The notes under the pieces are model-generated. The model was not told the origin of the DNA, did not search any database, and was given only the letters and a program-made list of their open reading frames with translations. A stretch of DNA of 64,000 nucleotides from an uncultured Eubacteriales bacterium (GTDB lineage: Bacteria > Bacillota > Clostridia > TANB77 > CAG-508), in NCBI GenBank assembly GCA_902787685.1, contig CADAHH010000004.1:96310-160309 (forward strand), read 5' to 3'. This document shows positions 11,137 to 21,927 of the stretch, in pieces (positions within the stretch are counted from its first letter, which is position 1; each line of letters starts with the position of its first letter). Both the position numbers and the translations under genes were made by a program.

Positions 11137-11571
11137 TTATTTTTCTAACGATATCATATCATCTAGTGTGTGCCATGCTAAAAGTGCACACTTAACTCTT
11201 GCTGGCATATTAGAAACATTTTTAAAAGCAATTGCATCTTCTAGTTTTTCTAAATTTGCTTCATCAACTTCTTCTCTTTTTATCATAGAAATAAATGTTT
11301 TAATTATTTCTTTTGCTTCTTCAATTGTTTTTCCTTTTAATGTATCTATCATAATTGAAGTAGATGCTTGTGATATTGCACAGCCATGTCCTGAAAATGC
11401 CATATCTTCAATAACATTTCCATTCATTTTAACTTCTAAGGTAATTTCATCTCCACAGTTTGGATTATGTCCAATATCACATAAATCCGCTTTACCTAAT
11501 TTCTTTTTATTATATGAGTTCATACTGTGTTCCATAATTAATTCATTGTATATATTATTTAAATCATCCAT
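11137..11571 (-). CDS. sufU: SUF-type Fe-S cluster scaffold / sulfur acceptor
   Basis: NPNCGDE...GHGCAISQAS...RVKCALLAW (three conserved Cys, SufU-type). Start set at MDDLNNIY. Confidence 0.85.
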   Translation of the reverse strand: MDDLNNIYNELIMEHSMNSYNKKKLGKADLCDIGHNPNCGDEITLEVKMNGNVIEDMAFSGHGCAISQASTSIMIDTLKGKTIEEAKEIIKTFISMIKREEVDEANLEKLEDAIAFKNVSNMPARVKCALLAWHTLDDMISLEK

Positions 11572-11635
11572 AAGAAATCCTTTCAAAATTTGACATTTAT
11601 TTATTTATTATAATTGTAAATAGGAGGTGATAAAT

Positions 11636-11929
11636 ATGGCGGATTCATTAACCTTTCGTAATCAACAATCAGTCAAACCATCTGCAGTATATACTGTTAC
11701 TAATAAAATGTCACAATTACATATTCTGTCATCTAAAGTTAAGGTTTGTATTGATGAAGCACTATCAAAAAGTGATGATAAGGATTACCTATCTTATAAT
11801 CTAAATACAGCAAAAACTTATATTGAAAATATACTTCAAGTTTTAGAACCCGAATTAAATTCTCATACCGCCCCTACAGGTAATGATGAACCTGAAGAAG
11901 GTGGACTTGACAAAAGTGACTTTGTTTAA
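11636..11929 (+). CDS. Hypothetical 97-aa acidic protein, antisense to the suf operon
   Basis: AGGAGGTGA lies 5 nt before the ATG at 11636 (the track start at 11627 is rejected). A terminator hairpin follows immediately. No motif recognised. Confidence 0.55.
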   Translation: MADSLTFRNQQSVKPSAVYTVTNKMSQLHILSSKVKVCIDEALSKSDDKDYLSYNLNTAKTYIENILQVLEPELNSHTAPTGNDEPEEGGLDKSDFV

Positions 11930-11956
11930 AACCTTGACTATCAAGGTTTTTTATTT
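11927..11956. terminator. Bidirectional hairpin overlapping the sufS stop codon
   Basis: aaaaccttga ctat tcaaggtttttt. Confidence 0.65.
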
Positions 11957-13174
11957 TTTCAAAAACCTCTCAAACATACTATAAGCTTTATTTAATGCAT
12001 TTACCAATTTATCCACATCATCCTTTGTATTATACAGATAAAAACTTGCTCTGCAGGTTGAATCTATTCCCATATATCTTAAAAGTGGTTGTGCACAATG
12101 GTTTCCTGATCGCACACATACTCCTTCTGAATCAAGTATACTTGCAACATCATGTGGATGAACTCCTTTTATGTTAAAAGAAATTACAGCCGAATGATTT
12201 TTTGCATTTTGTGTTAAATATAATTCTATATAATCCAATTTTTTTAATTCTTTAATTGCATAGCTTACAACTTCATTTTCAATTTCTTGAATTTTATCAT
12301 ATCCTATATTTTCAATATAATCAATTGCTACACCTAACCCAATTACACCTTCTACATTTTGTGTTCCTGCTTCAAATTTATTTGGTAGTGGTGCAAATGT
12401 TGTTTCTTGTTCATATACATATTCTATCATATCTCCCCCCATAAGAAAAGGGGTCATTTTATTTAATATTTCTTTTTTTCCATATAATACTCCTATTCCA
12501 AGTGGAGCTAGCATTTTATGACCTGAAAAAACTAGAAAATCACAGTCTAAGTCTTGTACATCTATTTTCATATGAGGAATACTTTGAGACGCATCTAATA
12601 CTACAACTGCACCTTTTTTATGTGCATATTTAATTATCTTTTTTACATCATTAATAGTTCCTAAAACATTTGATACATGTGTAATTGCAACAATCTTTGT
12701 ATTGTCTGTAATTTTAGTTTCTATTTCTTCATCAGAAATTTCATAATTATCATTAATATACATATATTCTAATTTAGCGCCTGTTACTTTGCTTACTTTT
12801 TGCCAGGGTACTAAATTTGAATGATGTTCCATAATAGAAAGAACTATTTCATCATCTTTTTTTAGATTATCCATTCCATAAGAATAAGCAATCAAGTTTA
12901 AAGCTTCTGAAGCATTTTTTGTAAATATAATTTCTTGTGCTTGTCTACTATTTATAAATTTTGCAATTTTCCCCCTAGTGTTTTCGTACATTTCAGTAGC
13001 TTCCATACTTAAAGAATATGCTCCTCTATGAGGATTTGCATTAAAATTTTCATAAAAGTCTTTAACAACATCAATTACTTGCACTGGTTTTTGTGTTGTA
13101 GCTCCACTATCTAAATAAGTTATATTTCTATTTTTCAATAATGGAAAATCATTTATTATTTCTTCTATATTCAT
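11951..13174 (-). CDS. sufS: Cysteine desulfurase, SufS type
   Basis: Class V aminotransferase fold, PLP lysine in FSGHKM, catalytic Cys in RSGNHCAQP. Confidence 0.9.
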   Translation of the reverse strand: MNIEEIINDFPLLKNRNITYLDSGATTQKPVQVIDVVKDFYENFNANPHRGAYSLSMEATEMYENTRGKIAKFINSRQAQEIIFTKNASEALNLIAYSYGMDNLKKDDEIVLSIMEHHSNLVPWQKVSKVTGAKLEYMYINDNYEISDEEIETKITDNTKIVAITHVSNVLGTINDVKKIIKYAHKKGAVVVLDASQSIPHMKIDVQDLDCDFLVFSGHKMLAPLGIGVLYGKKEILNKMTPFLMGGDMIEYVYEQETTFAPLPNKFEAGTQNVEGVIGLGVAIDYIENIGYDKIQEIENEVVSYAIKELKKLDYIELYLTQNAKNHSAVISFNIKGVHPHDVASILDSEGVCVRSGNHCAQPLLRYMGIDSTCRASFYLYNTKDDVDKLVNALNKAYSMFERFLKK

Positions 13175-13290
13175 AATTTAGCCCTTTCTGTCGACTTTTG
13201 TCGAACGATTTTTCTTGATTTATAGCACATTTGGTAATATAATTATGTAGCCTCTTTTTAAGAGAGTTCTTATTAAAGGAGGTGAACTAT

Positions 13291-13356
13291 ATGAAAAAGT
13301 TCATACGTTTAGTTGCTATGATATTAATATATTTGATTTCAAAATCAGATGATTAA
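13291..13356 (+). CDS. 21-aa hydrophobic peptide MKKFIRLVAMILIYLISKSDD; candidate type I toxin
   Basis: Promoter TTGATT (13215-13220)-17-TATAAT (13238-13243). The 5' UTR cctcttttt can pair with the SD aaaggagg. SD AAGGAGGTGA. The peptide is conserved in copy B. Confidence 0.5.
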   Translation: MKKFIRLVAMILIYLISKSDD

Positions 13357-13368
13357 TACATAGACACG

Positions 13369-13400
13369 AAAAAATCCCACTTGGCAGAGTGGGATTTTTA
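13369..13400. terminator. Bidirectional intrinsic terminator
   Basis: aaaaaatcccac ttggcaga gtgggattttt. Confidence 0.8.
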
Positions 13401-13427
13401 TATATGATAAGTTCATACGTTTATCAT
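13369..13427 (-). ncRNA. Candidate antitoxin sRNA (~60 nt)
   Basis: Minus-strand TTGACA (13463-13458)-17-TATTAT (13440-13435). The transcript starts with the complement of 13401-13423, a direct repeat of 13288-13311 (ATG plus codons 2-7), and ends at the shared terminator. Confidence 0.45.
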
Positions 13428-13510
13428 CATATTTATAATACATCAGATTTTTAGAAATGTCAATATCTATGTAAATTTTTTAATCGCAAAATTCGACATA
13501 TTCCCCACTT

Positions 13511-14572
13511 TTATGTTAATTTAGTATCTATCTGCTCAACAATTTTCTTTTTTATCTCTTCATTTTTTATATTTTCAATTATCTCATTAAACCCTGCTCT
13601 TATTATTAGTTTTTCTGCTTCTTGTTTTGATAATCCTCTTGTCATTAAATAAAACAAATTCTTTTTATCTATTTTCCCACATGCTGTGCTATGGCTTCCT
13701 TCTACATCTTCTTCTGTGCATAAAAGAATTGGAAGTGATATAGATTTTGCAGTATCAGATAGAATTGTACAATATTCTTTTTCATCTCCTATTGCCTTTT
13801 TTGCACCTTTTTTGAAATCTATTGTACCCTTGAAGTGTTTTTTACAATTATCTTTTATAGCACCTTTTACATCTATTCTTGCATTTGTATTTTTTCCATA
13901 ACACTCCATAATATAATTTAAATCTATAATTTGATTTTCATTTCCTAAATATACTGTATTCAAAGTATTTTTTGCATTATCGCCTTTTAAGTTTGAATAA
14001 TAATTTGTAACACTATTTTTTCCGCCAAAATCTACTATTGTATATTTTACATCTGCATTTTCTTCCAAAATGTTTTCAATTGCAATAAAATTATTTGATT
14101 TATTATTTAGCATATTTAGAATTATAATACTGGCTTTAGCTTCTTTATTTGCTATAACTTTTACTTTAGAATTATGATAACCATATGTATAATCAATTGA
14201 TTTATAATCTAAAACAATAGTAGAATTTGATTTTTCTTTTAGATTTATTTCTATATTTTCTATTAAATATTTATTATTCTCAGAAAATTCATAAGTTAAA
14301 TGTAATTCTTTATTATTAGTATTTGTTACATTAATTGATATTGTTTTATTTGATTTATCTTTAATTTGATTTTCTAAAAAATCCCCATTTCCATACTTAA
14401 ATTCTGTGAATTTATTAATTTCTAGAATTTCAAAATCAATTGTATCAACTAAAAACCTCAAACCATTAAATTGTTGTATAGTTTCAGGTATTTCTATATT
14501 TTCCAATTTTATATTATTTATAGCATAATTTTTTGCTGTTCTTATTGGTGTTTCGTTTAGTGTTAAATTCAT
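13511..14572 (-). CDS. sufD: Fe-S cluster assembly protein SufD
   Basis: SufB/SufD family C-terminal beta-helix region. Start moved to MNLTLNETP (ATG 14570-14572, GAAAGGAC upstream), because the track's 34-codon extension is repeat sequence. Confidence 0.8.
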   Translation of the reverse strand: MNLTLNETPIRTAKNYAINNIKLENIEIPETIQQFNGLRFLVDTIDFEILEINKFTEFKYGNGDFLENQIKDKSNKTISINVTNTNNKELHLTYEFSENNKYLIENIEINLKEKSNSTIVLDYKSIDYTYGYHNSKVKVIANKEAKASIIILNMLNNKSNNFIAIENILEENADVKYTIVDFGGKNSVTNYYSNLKGDNAKNTLNTVYLGNENQIIDLNYIMECYGKNTNARIDVKGAIKDNCKKHFKGTIDFKKGAKKAIGDEKEYCTILSDTAKSISLPILLCTEEDVEGSHSTACGKIDKKNLFYLMTRGLSKQEAEKLIIRAGFNEIIENIKNEEIKKKIVEQIDTKLT

Positions 14573-14693
14573 GATATTTAGTCCTTTCTGTCGACTTTTG
14601 TCGAACAATTTTTCTTGATTTGTAGCGCTTTTTGTAATATAATTATGTCGCCTCTTTTTAGAGAGTATTTTCATAAAGGAGGTGATGTTACTT

Positions 14694-14759
14694 ATGAAGA
14701 AATTACTAAAACTAGTAGCTATGATATTAATTTATTTGATTTCAAAATCTGATAATTAA
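14694..14759 (+). CDS. 21-aa hydrophobic peptide MKKLLKLVAMILIYLISKSDN; candidate type I toxin
   Basis: SD AAGGAGGTGA. 16 of 21 residues are identical to copy A, with all differences in residues 4-7 and the last residue. Confidence 0.5.
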   Translation: MKKLLKLVAMILIYLISKSDN

Positions 14760-14772
14760 TACATAGAAACGT

Positions 14773-14805
14773 AAAAACCCCACTCCGACAAGTGGGGTTT
14801 TTTTG
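14773..14805. terminator. Bidirectional intrinsic terminator
   Basis: aaaaaccccact ccgaca agtggggttttttt. Confidence 0.8.
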
Positions 14806-14834
14806 ATACTTATGAAAAAATACTAAAACTTTTC
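14773..14834 (-). ncRNA. Candidate antitoxin sRNA
   Basis: Minus-strand TTGACA (14869-14864)-17-TATTAT (14846-14841). The 5' end is the complement of 14807-14830, a direct repeat of 14690-14713 (acttatgaa.aaa.tactaaaact). Confidence 0.45.
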
Positions 14835-14918
14835 ATATTTATAATACATCAAATTTTCGAAAATGTCAATATTTATTGAATTTTTTCCATCGACATAATT
14901 TGGCATATTTCCCACTTT

Positions 14919-16316
14919 TTATCCTATAGCTCCTTCAAGTTCTAAGTTAATCAAATTATTCATCTCCACTGCATACTCAATTGGAAGTTCTTTTGAAATT
15001 GGTTCTGCAAAGCCTCTTACTATCATTGCTTTTGCATCTTCTTCACTTAAGCCTCTTGTCATTAAATAGAAAATTGATTTATCACTAATCTTCCCTATTT
15101 TTGCTTCATGTGAAAATTCTACTTCATCTGTTCTTATATCATTTACAGGAATTGTATCTGACCTTGATATATCATCTAGCATTAAAGATTCGCAGTCAAC
15201 CGATACTTTTGAATTTTTTGCATTTTCGTTAACTCTAACTAAAGCTCTGTAAGTTGCTGTTCCTCCATTCTTTGAGATTGACTTTGAATTTACAATACTT
15301 GATGTATTTGGTGCGTTGTGAACTACTTTAAATCCTGTATCTAAGTTTTGCCCTTTTCCTGCAAAAGATATTCCTGTATATTCTGTTTTGGCACCTTCTC
15401 CATTTAATATACTCATTGGATATAACATTGATATTTTTGAACCAAATGATCCAGATACCCAATCAACTTTTGCATTTTTGCCTATAATTGCTTTTTTTGT
15501 ATTTAAATTAAGCATATTTTTTGACCAGTTTTCTATTGTAGAATATCTTAAATAGGCATTATCTTTTACATATAATTCTACACATCCTGCATGGAGATTT
15601 ACTTTATTATATTTCGGTGCTGAGCATCCTTCTATAAAATGAAGTGAAGCACCCTCATCTACAATTATTAAAGTATGCTCAAATTGCCCAGATTCTGGAG
15701 AATTTAGTCTAAAATAGCTTTGAATTGGTATCTCAACTTTTACTCCTTTTGGTACATATACAAAAGATCCTCCTGACCAAACAGCACCATGTAAAGCAAC
15801 AAATTTATGGTCATATACTGGAACACATTTCATAAAATGTGCCTTCACTAAATCAGGGTATTCTCTAACTGCTGTTTCCATATCTGTGTAAATAACACCT
15901 TGTTCAAAAAGCTCATTTTTCATACTATGATAAACAACTTCTGAATCATATTGAGCTCCAACTCCTGCTAAAGACTTTTTTTCCGCTTCTGGAATTCCAA
16001 GTTTATCAAATGTATTTTTTATGTCTTCTGGAACTTCATCCCAATTTCCTGTCATCTTAGATTTTGGCCTTACATAAGTTGCTATTTCATCCATATTTAA
16101 TTCAGATAAATCTGGCCCCCATGTTGGAAGTTCAAGTTTTTCATATACTTCTAATGCTTTTAATCTAAACTCTTTCATCCACTCAGGGTCATTTTTTTGT
16201 TTTGATATTTCTTTTATTATTTCAGGGGTTAATCCTTTTTTTATTTTAAAATCATATTCATCTTTGTTTTTTATGTCATAAATATTTCTATTTATTTCTT
16301 CTAATTTTGTTTTCAC
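14919..16316 (-). CDS. sufB: Fe-S cluster assembly protein SufB
   Basis: Full-length SufB-like sequence. GTG start as given by the track. Confidence 0.9.
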   Translation of the reverse strand: MKTKLEEINRNIYDIKNKDEYDFKIKKGLTPEIIKEISKQKNDPEWMKEFRLKALEVYEKLELPTWGPDLSELNMDEIATYVRPKSKMTGNWDEVPEDIKNTFDKLGIPEAEKKSLAGVGAQYDSEVVYHSMKNELFEQGVIYTDMETAVREYPDLVKAHFMKCVPVYDHKFVALHGAVWSGGSFVYVPKGVKVEIPIQSYFRLNSPESGQFEHTLIIVDEGASLHFIEGCSAPKYNKVNLHAGCVELYVKDNAYLRYSTIENWSKNMLNLNTKKAIIGKNAKVDWVSGSFGSKISMLYPMSILNGEGAKTEYTGISFAGKGQNLDTGFKVVHNAPNTSSIVNSKSISKNGGTATYRALVRVNENAKNSKVSVDCESLMLDDISRSDTIPVNDIRTDEVEFSHEAKIGKISDKSIFYLMTRGLSEEDAKAMIVRGFAEPISKELPIEYAVEMNNLINLELEGAIG

Positions 16317-16374
16317 CTTTCCTACTTCTCACCTCTCACATCTAGCTTCTCACTTCCTGTTTTCCACTTCAAAA
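16317..16374 (-). repeat. Purine-rich GAGGT/GAAGT repeat (mRNA sense), family E half-element
   Basis: The sense strand reads gaagtggaaaacaggaagtgagaagctagatgtgagaggtgagaagtaggaaagg. It is related to the arms at 22557-22658 and 39271-39349. Confidence 0.5.
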
Positions 16375-17112
16375 TTATTTATAGTTCTTATATCCATTTT
16401 CCTCTATATCTTTTATTATTTCTTCTCCACCGGTCTTTACAATTTTACCATTTACTAAAACATGTACATAATCCACCTTTAGATTTTTAAGTATTTTAGC
16501 ATTATGAGTAATAATTAATACTGCATTATCTTTATTTTTGAACATTTCTATACCCTTAGACACTACATTTATTGCGTCTACATCTAAGCCAGAATCTGTT
16601 TCATCTAATATTGCAAGTTTAGGATTTAAAACAAGCATTTGAAGAATTTCATTTTTCTTTTTTTCTCCTCCAGAAAACCCTACATTTAAATCTCTTTCAC
16701 TATATTCTGGCTTTATTTGAAGTTCATTCATTTTTTGCTTAACTTCTTCTTTAAATTTAAATATTTTTACTGGCTCTCCTGTTACTTTATTTTTAGCAGT
16801 TTTTAAAAAATTAGTAACCGATATTCCTGGTATTTCTTCTGGAAGTTGAAAAGACATAAATACACCTTTTCGAGCTATTTCATCAGGTGATAAATTTGTA
16901 ATATTTTCATTTTCAAATACAATACTACCATCCATTTTTGTATACTCTGGATTATTAAATATTGCATTTGCAGTAGTTGATTTTCCAGAACCATTTGGTC
17001 CCATAATAACATGAACTTCACCTTTATTAATTTTTAAATCTATTCCCTTTAAAATTTCTTTTTCACCCGCATTTACATATAAATTATTTATTTCTAATAG
17101 TTCGTTTTTCAT
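16375..17112 (-). CDS. sufC: Fe-S cluster assembly ATPase SufC
   Basis: Walker A GPNGSGKST, ABC signature FSGGEKK, Walker B LAILDE. Confidence 0.92.
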   Translation of the reverse strand: MKNELLEINNLYVNAGEKEILKGIDLKINKGEVHVIMGPNGSGKSTTANAIFNNPEYTKMDGSIVFENENITNLSPDEIARKGVFMSFQLPEEIPGISVTNFLKTAKNKVTGEPVKIFKFKEEVKQKMNELQIKPEYSERDLNVGFSGGEKKKNEILQMLVLNPKLAILDETDSGLDVDAINVVSKGIEMFKNKDNAVLIITHNAKILKNLKVDYVHVLVNGKIVKTGGEEIIKDIEENGYKNYK

Positions 17113-17133
17113 CTTAAAATCCTTTCTTTTTTG

Positions 17134-17206
17134 TTATCACTGGCTTTGTGTACGTGACCGCGTTTTTGATAAAATTTAACACAGCTAAAATTGTAATTAT
17201 TTTTCA
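17134..17206. repeat. Family C repeat (right half of the GTAC hairpin plus aaaattgtaattatttttcaa terminus)
   Basis: gtgtacgtgaccgcgtttttgataaaatttaacacagctaaaattgtaattatttttcaa aligns with 7165-7225. It overlaps the TGA stop of the DtxR-like gene. Confidence 0.75.
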
Positions 17207-17647
17207 ATCGTTAACTCTTCTCTTGCAAGTTCTGCATCTCTCTTGTGCTATATCATAGTTACAATTCAATTCATTTAAATTAAGAACTTTATGCACATAT
17301 TTAGCTAAACTATTTAACGTATAATCTTCCATAGTAAGTTTGAGTTTTTCCGCTTCTTTTCTTGCTTTTTCTTCATCTAGCTCTAAAACATCTTTAAGAA
17401 AAACATAACTTATATCATATGCTTCTAAGACTTTTTTTGCTATATCTTCACCTTTATCTGTAAGCTCTATTTTTCCATATGTTTTATTATTTACTAAATC
17501 TAATCCTTTTAAATTATTAATAGCTTTTGTTACACTTGGTTTTGAAACATTTAAACTTTCTGCTATATCAGTAACTCTGATTTCTTCATTTTTTATTTTT
17601 AGCACATACATTGTTTTTAAATATTCTTCTTGTGATTTTGATATCAT
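17204..17647 (-). CDS. DtxR/MntR-family metal-dependent repressor
   Basis: N-terminal winged HTH (VTDIAESLNVSKPSVTKAINNL) plus a dimerisation domain, located directly upstream of sufC. Confidence 0.75.
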   Translation of the reverse strand: MISKSQEEYLKTMYVLKIKNEEIRVTDIAESLNVSKPSVTKAINNLKGLDLVNNKTYGKIELTDKGEDIAKKVLEAYDISYVFLKDVLELDEEKARKEAEKLKLTMEDYTLNSLAKYVHKVLNLNELNCNYDIAQERCRTCKRRVND

Positions 17648-21396: not shown

Positions 21397-21927
21397 CTAT
21401 TCTATTATCTTTTTTATTTCCTCATCATTTTTCAATCTTTCACTTAGAAAATGTATTGCCCTTTTGTCCTGATTTACTGCAATTTTTGCAATTTCTTCAT
21501 TATCTCTTAATCTGAAACTAGCATATTTTATAATTAGTCCCTTATTTGAAACTGCTGCTTTAACCACATCTTCATCATCTCTTAATTCTTCTGATGCATA
21601 ATATAAAGTTTGCCCATAAGTTTTTACACTTTCAAATATTACATCTTTATCAGCTTTTAATCTTTCTGAAGCATAACAAGCAGTCCAAGGAGCATTTTTT
21701 ATAGCTAACAGCATAATTTCTTTATTATCTTTTAATCTGTCACTTGCAAATTCTAAAGCTTCTCCATCATTTTCTAATGCTTTTTTTACAACCTCTTCAT
21801 CATCTTGTAATTCATTTGATACCCACTCTAATAGCTTTCCTTGATTGCTTACTGCATTTATTACATATTCTTTATTCTTATTATTACTTTTTATTTCTGT
21901 AACTTTTGGATCTTCCAACTTTATCAC
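21397..21927 (-). CDS. DUF4116-type repeat protein
   Basis: Five or so repeats of the pattern ..AV..NG.AL.YAS..LK.D.E... Confidence 0.6.
   Translation of the reverse strand: MIKLEDPKVTEIKSNNKNKEYVINAVSNQGKLLEWVSNELQDDEEVVKKALENDGEALEFASDRLKDNKEIMLLAIKNAPWTACYASERLKADKDVIFESVKTYGQTLYYASEELRDDEDVVKAAVSNKGLIIKYASFRLRDNEEIAKIAVNQDKRAIHFLSERLKNDEEIKKIIE

Follow-up and report, generated by a model that had tools for sequence, protein, structure and literature searches.

Two cassettes in consecutive gaps of a suf operon

The window analysed here, a stretch of 64,000 nucleotides from an uncultured Eubacteriales bacterium, is AT-rich (G+C, ~27%) and carries a suf operon on its minus strand, in which a gene for a DtxR-family regulator is followed by sufC, sufB, sufD, sufS and sufU, each of the suf genes being identified by Pfam matches. 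Two consecutive intercistronic gaps of this operon, the sufD-sufS gap (336 bp) and the sufB-sufD gap (346 bp), are occupied by two copies of a candidate type I toxin-antitoxin cassette. We refer to them as cassette A and cassette B. In each, a predicted mRNA for a small hydrophobic peptide (RNA I) converges with a shorter predicted RNA (RNA II). The features are listed in Table 1.

Table 1. Features of the suf operon, of its two cassettes and of the sufC-sufB gaps of relatives that contain small ORFs (positions are those of the gaps, in the coordinates of loci L008 to L027)
Feature	Position	Strand	Remarks
Host operon	11137..17647	-	DtxR-family regulator gene, then sufC, sufB, sufD, sufS, sufU; Pfam
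Operon consensus promoter	17708-17680	-	Promoter scan
sufB	14919-16316	-	Pfam
sufD	13511-14572	-	Pfam
sufS	11951-13174	-	Pfam
Cassette A	13175..13510	+ (putative toxin strand; antisense to suf)	Entire sufD-sufS intercistronic gap
A, left-end motif TGTCGACTTTTGTCGAAC	13189..13206		8 nt upstream of the putative toxin -35 box; nearly invariant in 34 copies
A, predicted toxin (RNA I) promoter TTGATT-17-TATAAT	13215-13243	+	Promoter scan; position kept in relatives
A, predicted RNA I, ~150 nt	13247..13400	+	Start inferred from -10 box
A, DR1 (predicted RNA II target)	13288..13311	+	Start codon and codons 2-7
A, 21-codon ORF MKKFIRLVAMILIYLISKSDD and stop	13291..13356	+	Shine-Dalgarno AAAGGAGGTGA at 13275-13285
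A, predicted bidirectional intrinsic terminator	13370..13399	both	Arms 13370-13381/13388-13399
A, predicted RNA II, ~60 nt	13369..13428	-	Co-directional with suf; 5' recognition hairpin and terminator hairpin
A, DR2 (direct repeat of DR1)	13401..13423	+	Complement is the predicted RNA II 5' end
A, predicted RNA II promoter TTGACA-17-TATTAT	13435-13463	-	Promoter scan; position kept in relatives
A, right-end motif ATCGCAAAATTCGACA	13483..13498		Second terminal inverted repeat arm, upstream of the RNA II promoter
Cassette B	14573..14918	+	Entire sufB-sufD intercistronic gap; orientation as cassette A
B, left-end motif TGTCGACTTTTGTCGAAC	14589..14606
B, predicted toxin (RNA I) promoter TTGATT-17-TATAAT	14615-14643	+	Promoter scan
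B, predicted RNA I, ~158 nt	14647..14804	+	Three hairpins as in cassette A
B, DR1	14686..14713	+
B, 21-codon ORF MKKLLKLVAMILIYLISKSDN and stop	14694..14759	+	Shine-Dalgarno at 14675-14685
B, predicted bidirectional intrinsic terminator	14773..14802	both	Arms 14773-14784/14791-14802
B, predicted RNA II, ~63 nt	14772..14834	-
B, DR2	14804..14830	+
B, predicted RNA II promoter TTGACA-17-TATTAT	14841-14869	-	Promoter scan
B, right-end motif	14890..14905		Second terminal inverted repeat arm
sufC-sufB gap small ORF	L008 1492-1970	antisense
sufC-sufB gap small ORF	L012 1777-2255	antisense
sufC-sufB gap small ORF	L013 1995-2473	antisense
sufC-sufB gap small ORF	L027 3169-3473	antisense
sufC-sufB gap small ORF	L010 2334-2587	antisense

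An earlier note on this DNA had described the two gaps as copies of one element, each with two convergent promoters, a leader able to pair with the Shine-Dalgarno sequence, a hydrophobic open reading frame (ORF) of 21 codons, a symmetric A-run/T-run terminator, a direct repeat of the ORF start region that differs between the copies yet co-varies within each, and imperfect terminal inverted repeats. We recovered every one of these features. The two cassettes have a mean column identity of 88% in a MAFFT alignment and are 80% identical over their full length by blastn. The boundaries of the homology are exactly the flanking stop and start codons, and the similarity of the neighbouring coding DNA is at background (0.23-0.53 per 30-nt block). 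A duplication by gene conversion through the paralogous 3' ends of sufB and sufD was rejected because the homology between A and B ends at the stop codon. Neither a pattern search nor an nhmmer profile found a third copy in the 64-kb window. A longer reading of SufD (ORF 13511-14674) was also rejected: all homologues have ~353 residues, and the extension falls within cassette B.

The promoter scan placed both promoters of each cassette where the earlier note had put them. As a class, promoter-like sites showed no enrichment in DNA of this AT content (50 sites, against 45 expected), so the case for the four predicted cassette promoters rests on the conservation of their positions in relatives. 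Each 21-codon ORF starts 5-8 nt past the Shine-Dalgarno sequence AAAGGAGGTGA. In both cassettes, the arms of the predicted terminator are 12 bp long and 100% complementary, with an A-run on one flank and a T-run on the other.

For comparison we took the loci of SufD homologues, which form a graded series from 94% down to ~55% identity, and searched public genome, metagenome and viral contig sequences for matches to a degenerate pattern of the ORF core. A SufD protein identical to that of the window occurs on metagenome contigs. The resulting set comprised 45 occurrences, or 34 distinct copies, at 25 related loci. The boxes of both promoters hold their positions in the 34 copies. The RNA II promoter TTGACA-17-TATTAT is kept in all of them, a few having TTGACT or an alternative -10 box. 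The comparison thus establishes the anatomy of the cassette at the level of sequence.

The predicted RNAs and the encoded peptide

Across the copies, RNA I is predicted to be 145-161 nt long, from just past the -10 box to the T-run. Its consensus fold has three hairpins: a 5' stem-loop, a long hairpin formed by codons 9-21 together with the 3' untranslated region, and the terminator. In the 5' stem-loop (13250-13285 in cassette A), GCCUCUUUU forms a 9-bp helix with AAAGGAGGU, the latter being the Shine-Dalgarno sequence; the anti-Shine-Dalgarno element is CCUCUUUU. This stem-loop was predicted in the consensus and in both window copies, and 99% of it is paired across the copies. The start codon and codons 2-7 lie in a weakly structured stretch with hairpins 1 and 2 on either side. 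The minimum free energy of RNA I was -50.5 kcal/mol for cassette A (z, -7.5) and -48.7 kcal/mol for cassette B (z, -6.6).

Conservation of this fold is evident from the alignment. Standard pairs made up 98.3% of the pair cells, compared with 38-57% when the partners were slid, and seven pairs had changes on both sides. The compensatory changes include an exchange of CG and UA at one stem position of the terminator (23 and 10 rows, so that 10 of 33 rows have the change) and one of AU and GC in the apical stem (16 and 13 rows). None of 500 shuffles attained the observed values on four of five measures. That codons 9-21 form part of the second hairpin accounts for how unusually well they are conserved at the nucleotide level. 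A permissive search of 12000-16000 against Rfam 15 gave only chance-level, terminator-driven matches (the best, Phe_leader, scoring 31 bits against a gathering score of 55), and a search of the whole window at gathering scores gave two tRNAs only.

The ORF is intact, with exactly 21 codons, in 31 of the 34 distinct copies. The position of the stop codon is held by TAA (28 copies), TAG (3) or TGA (2). Residues 9-19 (AMILIYLISKS) are almost invariant, with synonymous variation at codons 11, 12, 13, 16 and 19. At position 6, 28 of 33 copies have K or R, encoded by six different codons, and the remaining five have Q or N. The other two frames are closed by stops in 31-33 of the 33 copies. The ORF is thus coding and its peptide under purifying selection: the 21-codon length, the stop position and the residues are kept despite the synonymous changes.

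The consensus peptide is MKKILRLVAMILIYLISKSDN, or M-[KNR]-[KRN]-[LIF]-[LI]-[KRQ]-L-V-A-M-I-L-I-Y-L-I-S-K-S-D-N with the alternative residues. Its N-terminus is basic, its core is LVAMILIYLI and its tail is short and polar. K, R or N at positions 2-3 followed by a hydrophobic stretch (4-16) is a trait generic among type I toxins. By analogy with these, the peptide would be toxic to the membrane and RNA II would be its antidote.

RNA II is predicted to be 59-68 nt long across the copies and to form a weak hairpin at its 5' end and, after it, the terminator hairpin. The first ~25 nt are complementary to the start codon and codons 2-7 of the ORF through DR2, a repeat of DR1 that sits beyond the terminator. 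DR1 and DR2 diverge strongly between copies but match within a copy. The mean alignment score was 18.8 for cognate and 11.0 for non-cognate pairs, and none of 10,000 permutations reached the observed mean (p <= 1e-4). Several columns have three co-varying states; for example, one has CC in 9 copies, AA in 11, TT in 12 and a mismatch in 2. Mismatches between the repeats were of the kind compatible with a G.U pair in the RNA I x RNA II orientation in 35 cases and of the reverse kind in 5 (manual tally). A 1-nt bulge lies immediately past the AUG in 28 of the 34 copies. In cassette B, the repeat is made up of two sub-blocks with spacings of 118 and 117, an offset of 1 nt.

The predicted duplexes agree with this co-variation. 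Their mean energy was -27.2 kcal/mol for cognate and -14.7 kcal/mol for non-cognate RNAs. In the window, the values were -25.0 (A x A) and -27.2 (B x B) kcal/mol, while those of the crossed duplexes were -12.9 and -7.6 kcal/mol. The weakness of the crossed duplexes indicates that the two window cassettes should not cross-regulate through the recognition domain; they are predicted to be orthogonal.

These features suggest the following mechanism. The plus-strand promoter would give RNA I, a stable mRNA of ~150 nt for the 21-residue peptide, which on its own would be closed to translation by the pairing of CCUCUUUU with the Shine-Dalgarno sequence. The stronger convergent promoter, co-directional with suf, would give RNA II of ~60 nt, which would end at the common bidirectional terminator. 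RNA II would pair with RNA I at two sites, through the complementary terminator stem-loops and through its 5' ~25 nt over the start codon and codons 2-7, and this pairing would block translation of the peptide. With recognition segments that have diverged between the window copies, each RNA II would control only its own RNA I.

Copies in relatives and the place of the cassette in the operon

All 45 occurrences were found in suf intercistronic gaps, where the cassette fills the whole gap and the ORF is always antisense to suf. An operon has 0-3 copies: the sufB-sufD gap holds 1-2 (in tandem) and the sufD-sufS gap 1. The hosts are a small group of uncultured gut and rumen Clostridia. No copy was found outside suf in six cassette-bearing genome assemblies or in the 64-kb window, and the ORF-core pattern had 0 matches in viral contigs. 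Searches of plasmids and phages (tblastn with the peptide, blastn with cassette B) found no cassette; the only blastn match was a 42-nt AT-rich one in Bacillus plasmids. In a relative with 58% SufD identity (L010/L011), the gaps are tight, 15 and 68 nt, and an nhmmer profile detected no diverged copy of the cassette. Copies in other genomes that lacked the ORF or the within-copy repeat would, according to the earlier note, have counted against its proposal. The outcome favoured it, since every copy keeps its cognate repeat and the ORF is rarely broken.

In a neighbour-joining tree, A-type and B-type copies formed clades that span species, with a few exchanges between the two sites. Both types have therefore been kept since before the species split, and the window copies are old paralogues. 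The earlier note had called the cassettes inserted. They do lie antisense in consecutive suf gaps; by the tree and the distribution, they are neither a recent duplication nor recent insertions of a mobile element that is dispersed, but paralogues that have long resided in the suf operon of a single clade.

The ends of the cassette bear on the same question. All copies share the end motif TGTCGA-N4-TGTCGA, which is nearly invariant and precedes both convergent promoters in the same relative orientation. The terminal inverted repeats are 12 nt long and 92% complementary in cassette A (13189-13200/13487-13498) and 16 nt long and 75% complementary in cassette B (14589-14604/14890-14905). In a suf-sense RNA, the left-end motif forms a 5-bp hairpin immediately before the ribosome-binding site of sufS and sufD. 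The motif might be bound by a protein instead of being a transposon end; it might also be a site of recombination or, as a hairpin, stabilise the mRNA. A mobile element resembling a miniature inverted-repeat transposable element (MITE), or a repeat spread by recombination, would have such imperfect inverted repeats (12-18 nt), and its promoters, ORF and hairpins would be incidental. Presence and copy number vary (0-3 per operon, some copies being in tandem), the two gap sites show some exchange, and in one relative a 47-nt scar joins both ends, all in line with this explanation. Nevertheless, we found no dispersed copies and no evident target-site duplication, and the inverted repeats, at similar distances upstream of both promoters, could equally be protein-binding sites. 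The selection on the peptide, the co-variation of DR1 with DR2 and the compensatory changes in the terminator show that the interior has a function. We therefore consider a purely mobile origin of these features very unlikely.

Several copies have decayed. In L007, a gap of 47 nt has the left end fused to the right end (the scar mentioned above). In L013-15, a remnant of 129 nt (L013 3872-4000) retains only the putative toxin promoter and the terminator, the toxin and antitoxin parts having gone together. The sufD-sufS gap of L004 has only a right-end fragment. Lesions on the toxin side are a frameshift (L022A; L022 6170-6510) and a premature stop that leaves a 19-residue ORF (L016Bu; L016 6919-7246). 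A third lesion on this side, in L017B (L017 6808-7153), is a mutated Shine-Dalgarno sequence, with a mismatched direct repeat. None of the 34 distinct copies had kept the toxin and lost the RNA II promoter. Loss on the toxin side, or of both sides, is consistent with the logic of a toxin and its antitoxin, as judged from the sequences.

This pattern also bears on whether the peptide is a toxin at all. Many small membrane proteins are non-toxic. The cassette might encode one of these, for example a modulator of a transporter or of the Suf machinery, with RNA II tuning its level. In favour of this, the peptide is conserved, can be translated, is closely tied to a single pathway and lacks the signature of the Fst/Ldr toxins (see below). 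This explanation is, nonetheless, quite unlikely in our view. Two to three orthogonal copies per operon, each with a private antisense RNA, are a typical trait of type I loci, not of accessory subunits (PMC4147584), the translation of the peptide is predicted to be doubly locked by the 5' stem-loop and the antisense RNA, and the decay was on the toxin side, with no copy in which only the RNA II promoter was lost.

The predicted terminators stand in the path of suf transcription. A promoter scan that included the copies from relatives found no conserved suf-sense promoter downstream of the cassette terminators. One candidate, TCGACA-18-TAAATT, was rejected because it abuts the start codon and cannot serve an mRNA led by a Shine-Dalgarno sequence. 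As sufD and sufS are nevertheless intact and conserved in all cassette-bearing genomes, their expression needs read-through of the terminators. The near-consensus RNA II promoter just upstream of the terminator may replenish the read-through and compensate for polarity. The earlier note had the cassette supply the downstream suf gene's ribosome-binding site. The site is indeed carried along with the unit, but it is not newly supplied, because relatives have an equivalent site, CCTTTCT (AGAAAGG), in gaps without a cassette too.

These observations raise the alternative that the cassette is a regulatory device inside the operon and not a toxin-antitoxin system, its terminator and promoter setting the ratio of SufC/SufB to SufD/SufS. 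RNA I would then be a cis-antisense RNA that triggers processing or decay of suf mRNA, and the peptide would be harmless or secondary. It would account for the confinement of all copies to suf gaps, which they fill in antisense orientation, with none elsewhere in six assemblies, the 64-kb window, plasmids and viral contigs. It would also fit the retention of both paralogues across species and the presence of other antisense small genes in suf gaps of relatives. With no suf-sense promoter past the terminators, moreover, the cassette must affect the transcription of sufD and sufS. On the other hand, three conserved features would be unneeded if suf mRNA were the sole target: the purifying selection on the peptide, the anti-Shine-Dalgarno stem-loop, and the variable 5' segment of RNA II, which tracks the start of the peptide and no suf sequence. 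The cassette is also dispensable for suf, since relatives that lack it use the same operon with 15-68 nt in the gaps. We regard this alternative as unlikely; a regulatory role and a toxin-antitoxin role are not exclusive.

The two roles might even be coupled. Any suf transcript that reads through includes the sequence of RNA II as well as a complement to all of RNA I, which suggests a link between suf transcription and silencing of the toxin. The cassettes might thus be wired into the operon in such a way that the toxin is translated only if suf transcription collapses, with suf transcription meeting the toxin promoter head-on. Such wiring seems doubtful to us. If it were true, the cassettes would form an addiction module that guards an essential operon for the assembly of iron-sulfur clusters, or a brake that couples growth to the demand for these clusters, and the terminator with the strong internal promoter would set the stoichiometry of SufC/SufB versus SufD/SufS.

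Taking the evidence together, we put the probability that each gap holds a par-type type I toxin-antitoxin cassette at roughly 0.7. Some points weigh against this interpretation. The two RNAs are presumed, with their starts placed from the -10 boxes, and the toxicity of the peptide is assumed by analogy. The helix that sequesters the Shine-Dalgarno sequence is conserved without changes on both sides, so that it draws its support from conservation and energy only. The copies are phylogenetically related, and the permutation and shuffle statistics overstate their independence. It would be unusual for a selfish addiction module to be confined strictly to one operon, and this leaves room for a role in suf regulation. 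The remaining points concern the peptide. Searches of Pfam (E <= 1) and NCBIfam (E <= 10) assigned the peptides to no family, a 21-residue query having little statistical power. The Fst/Ldr signature includes a Trp that is conserved between the transmembrane helix and a tail rich in charges, and the PXXXG motif is essential for the toxicity of Fst and Lpt (PMC7472228). Trp is missing from the consensus peptide, and two of the residues in its tail, SKSDN, are charged. PXXXG is absent, and the 22 peptide variants contain no Pro or Gly except one G at position 20. An uninterrupted hydrophobic core of 10 residues in a peptide of 21 is also at the short extreme for type I toxins.

Other elements were observed near the suf genes. 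The sufC-sufB gap of the window has only 58 nt (16317-16374) and is CT-rich. In relatives, the same gap contains antisense ORFs for hydrophilic proteins of 43-125 residues, such as one beginning MANNNCNEFRKNQ (Table 1); in most, a -10 box, a Shine-Dalgarno sequence and a hairpin resembling a terminator can be recognised. None is related to the cassette, and they occur in relatives as far as the 58%-identity one. The sufB-sufD gap of L007 (2749-4000; L019 is the same contig) holds, in addition to the cassette, an antisense ORF of 148 residues and another small ORF for a hydrophobic peptide, MKKIIKIFKNLSNVLPLIANIFTAIVAIYELTSSEASVSVGEEESGE, which is preceded by a TTGACA/TATAAT promoter. The latter had no NCBIfam match and may be another type I-like toxin. 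A second repeat family of short palindromic intergenic sequences, with the core GGGAC(n)GTCCC flanked by CATT/AATG, resembles repetitive extragenic palindromes. It occurs in the window at 2038-2102 and 3437-3501 and in suf gaps of L004, L006, L008, L010 and L013, in some of them beside the cassette or in its place.

Three further similarities were noted within the window. A 54-nt stretch upstream of sufC (17170-17223) is 81% identical to 40548-40601, upstream of an ORF for an Alg14-like glycosyltransferase (40032-40505, minus strand); the two may share a promoter or operator. A 69-nt direct repeat (6998-7066 and 39863-39931; 93% identity, 33 kb apart) had no Rfam match at the gathering score. 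In 21490-21831, a 117-nt unit occurs three times with 62-73% identity and spacing of 75 and 150 nt; this is probably a repetitive coding region.

Comparison with known type I loci

Loci of the par type have been defined by convergent promoters, a bidirectional intrinsic terminator, direct repeats and intramolecular sequestration of the Shine-Dalgarno sequence (PMC7472228). In both cassettes of the window, convergent promoters are predicted, the terminator is shared and bidirectional, direct repeats provide complementarity over the translation initiation site, and a 5' stem-loop sequesters the Shine-Dalgarno sequence. The same four features are present in nearly all of the 34 distinct copies, the few lesions being on the toxin side. 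The par locus of plasmid pAD1 of Enterococcus faecalis (RNA I/Fst - RNA II), to which the earlier note had likened the cassettes, has all of these; its antitoxin RNA is likewise short, and its peptide is small and hydrophobic, with charges at the N-terminus (PMC7472228). The division of the cassette repeat into two sub-blocks offset by 1 nt is similar to DRa and DRb of par.

The likeness holds for the architecture of the locus, in every respect that can be tested by sequence, and not for the peptide, which has neither the Fst/Ldr signature nor a Pfam or NCBIfam match. The cassette peptide has 21 residues compared with 33, lacks PXXXG as well as the conserved Trp and Val positions, does not match the Pfam family Fst_toxin, and has a tail of only 5 mildly polar residues. 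The absence of PXXXG and the conserved Trp indicates a new type of putative toxin and not a member of the Fst family. Unlike par, the cassette is chromosomal and internal to an operon and has been found only in uncultured Clostridia, and the U-turn motif of the terminator loop is not conserved, the loops being variable.

A chromosomal par-type locus among metabolic genes is also known. The locus par_EF0409 of E. faecalis lies between two paralogous operons for phosphotransferase systems of the mannitol family, and a link to the flanking metabolism has been suspected (bioRxiv 10.1101/2022.02.04.479212; PMC7472228). It sits between operons and its toxin has the Fst signature, whereas the cassettes occupy intercistronic gaps of a single operon, with their terminators in its transcription path.

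The Ibs toxins of Escherichia coli have 18-19 residues. The Ibs/Sib and Ldr/Rdl loci of this species resemble the cassettes in that they are paralogous copies, some in tandem, each with its own antisense RNA, with recognition domains over the translation start and, for Ibs, tiny hydrophobic toxins (PMC4147584). In contrast to RNA II, the Sib RNAs are fully overlapping antisense RNAs, not convergent ones with direct repeats and a shared terminator. The Ibs/Sib and Ldr/Rdl loci are dispersed intergenic repeats, and neither the cassette nor its peptide is similar to them in sequence. The Fst-Sm/srSm locus of Streptococcus mutans is likewise a chromosomal intergenic type I locus with a convergent toxin mRNA and antitoxin RNA (PMC3543317); direct repeats and a bidirectional terminator are among the terms used in that paper. 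It differs from the cassettes in having a toxin of the Fst family, in being single-copy and in not being internal to an operon.

We found no report in the literature of a type I locus inside a suf operon; two papers that mention both are unrelated. To our knowledge, few type I loci have been described in uncultured Clostridia. Bidirectional terminators and convergent promoters in consecutive gaps of a housekeeping operon that is normally tightly packed, conserved across species, are unusual. They raise the questions of how the operon tolerates or exploits these inserts and whether a toxin-antitoxin module senses the transcription of its host operon. The 34 natural variants provide a ready-made series of compensatory mutations for the recognition code of RNA I and RNA II, in which orthogonal pairs coexist in one cell. 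Judged from its sequence, the cassette follows the RNA logic of par, encodes a peptide of 21 residues that is new, and is resident in the suf gaps of a narrow clade of uncultured Clostridia in 1-3 orthogonal copies. It would add to the known systems a 21-residue candidate toxin type under par-style RNA control in these bacteria.

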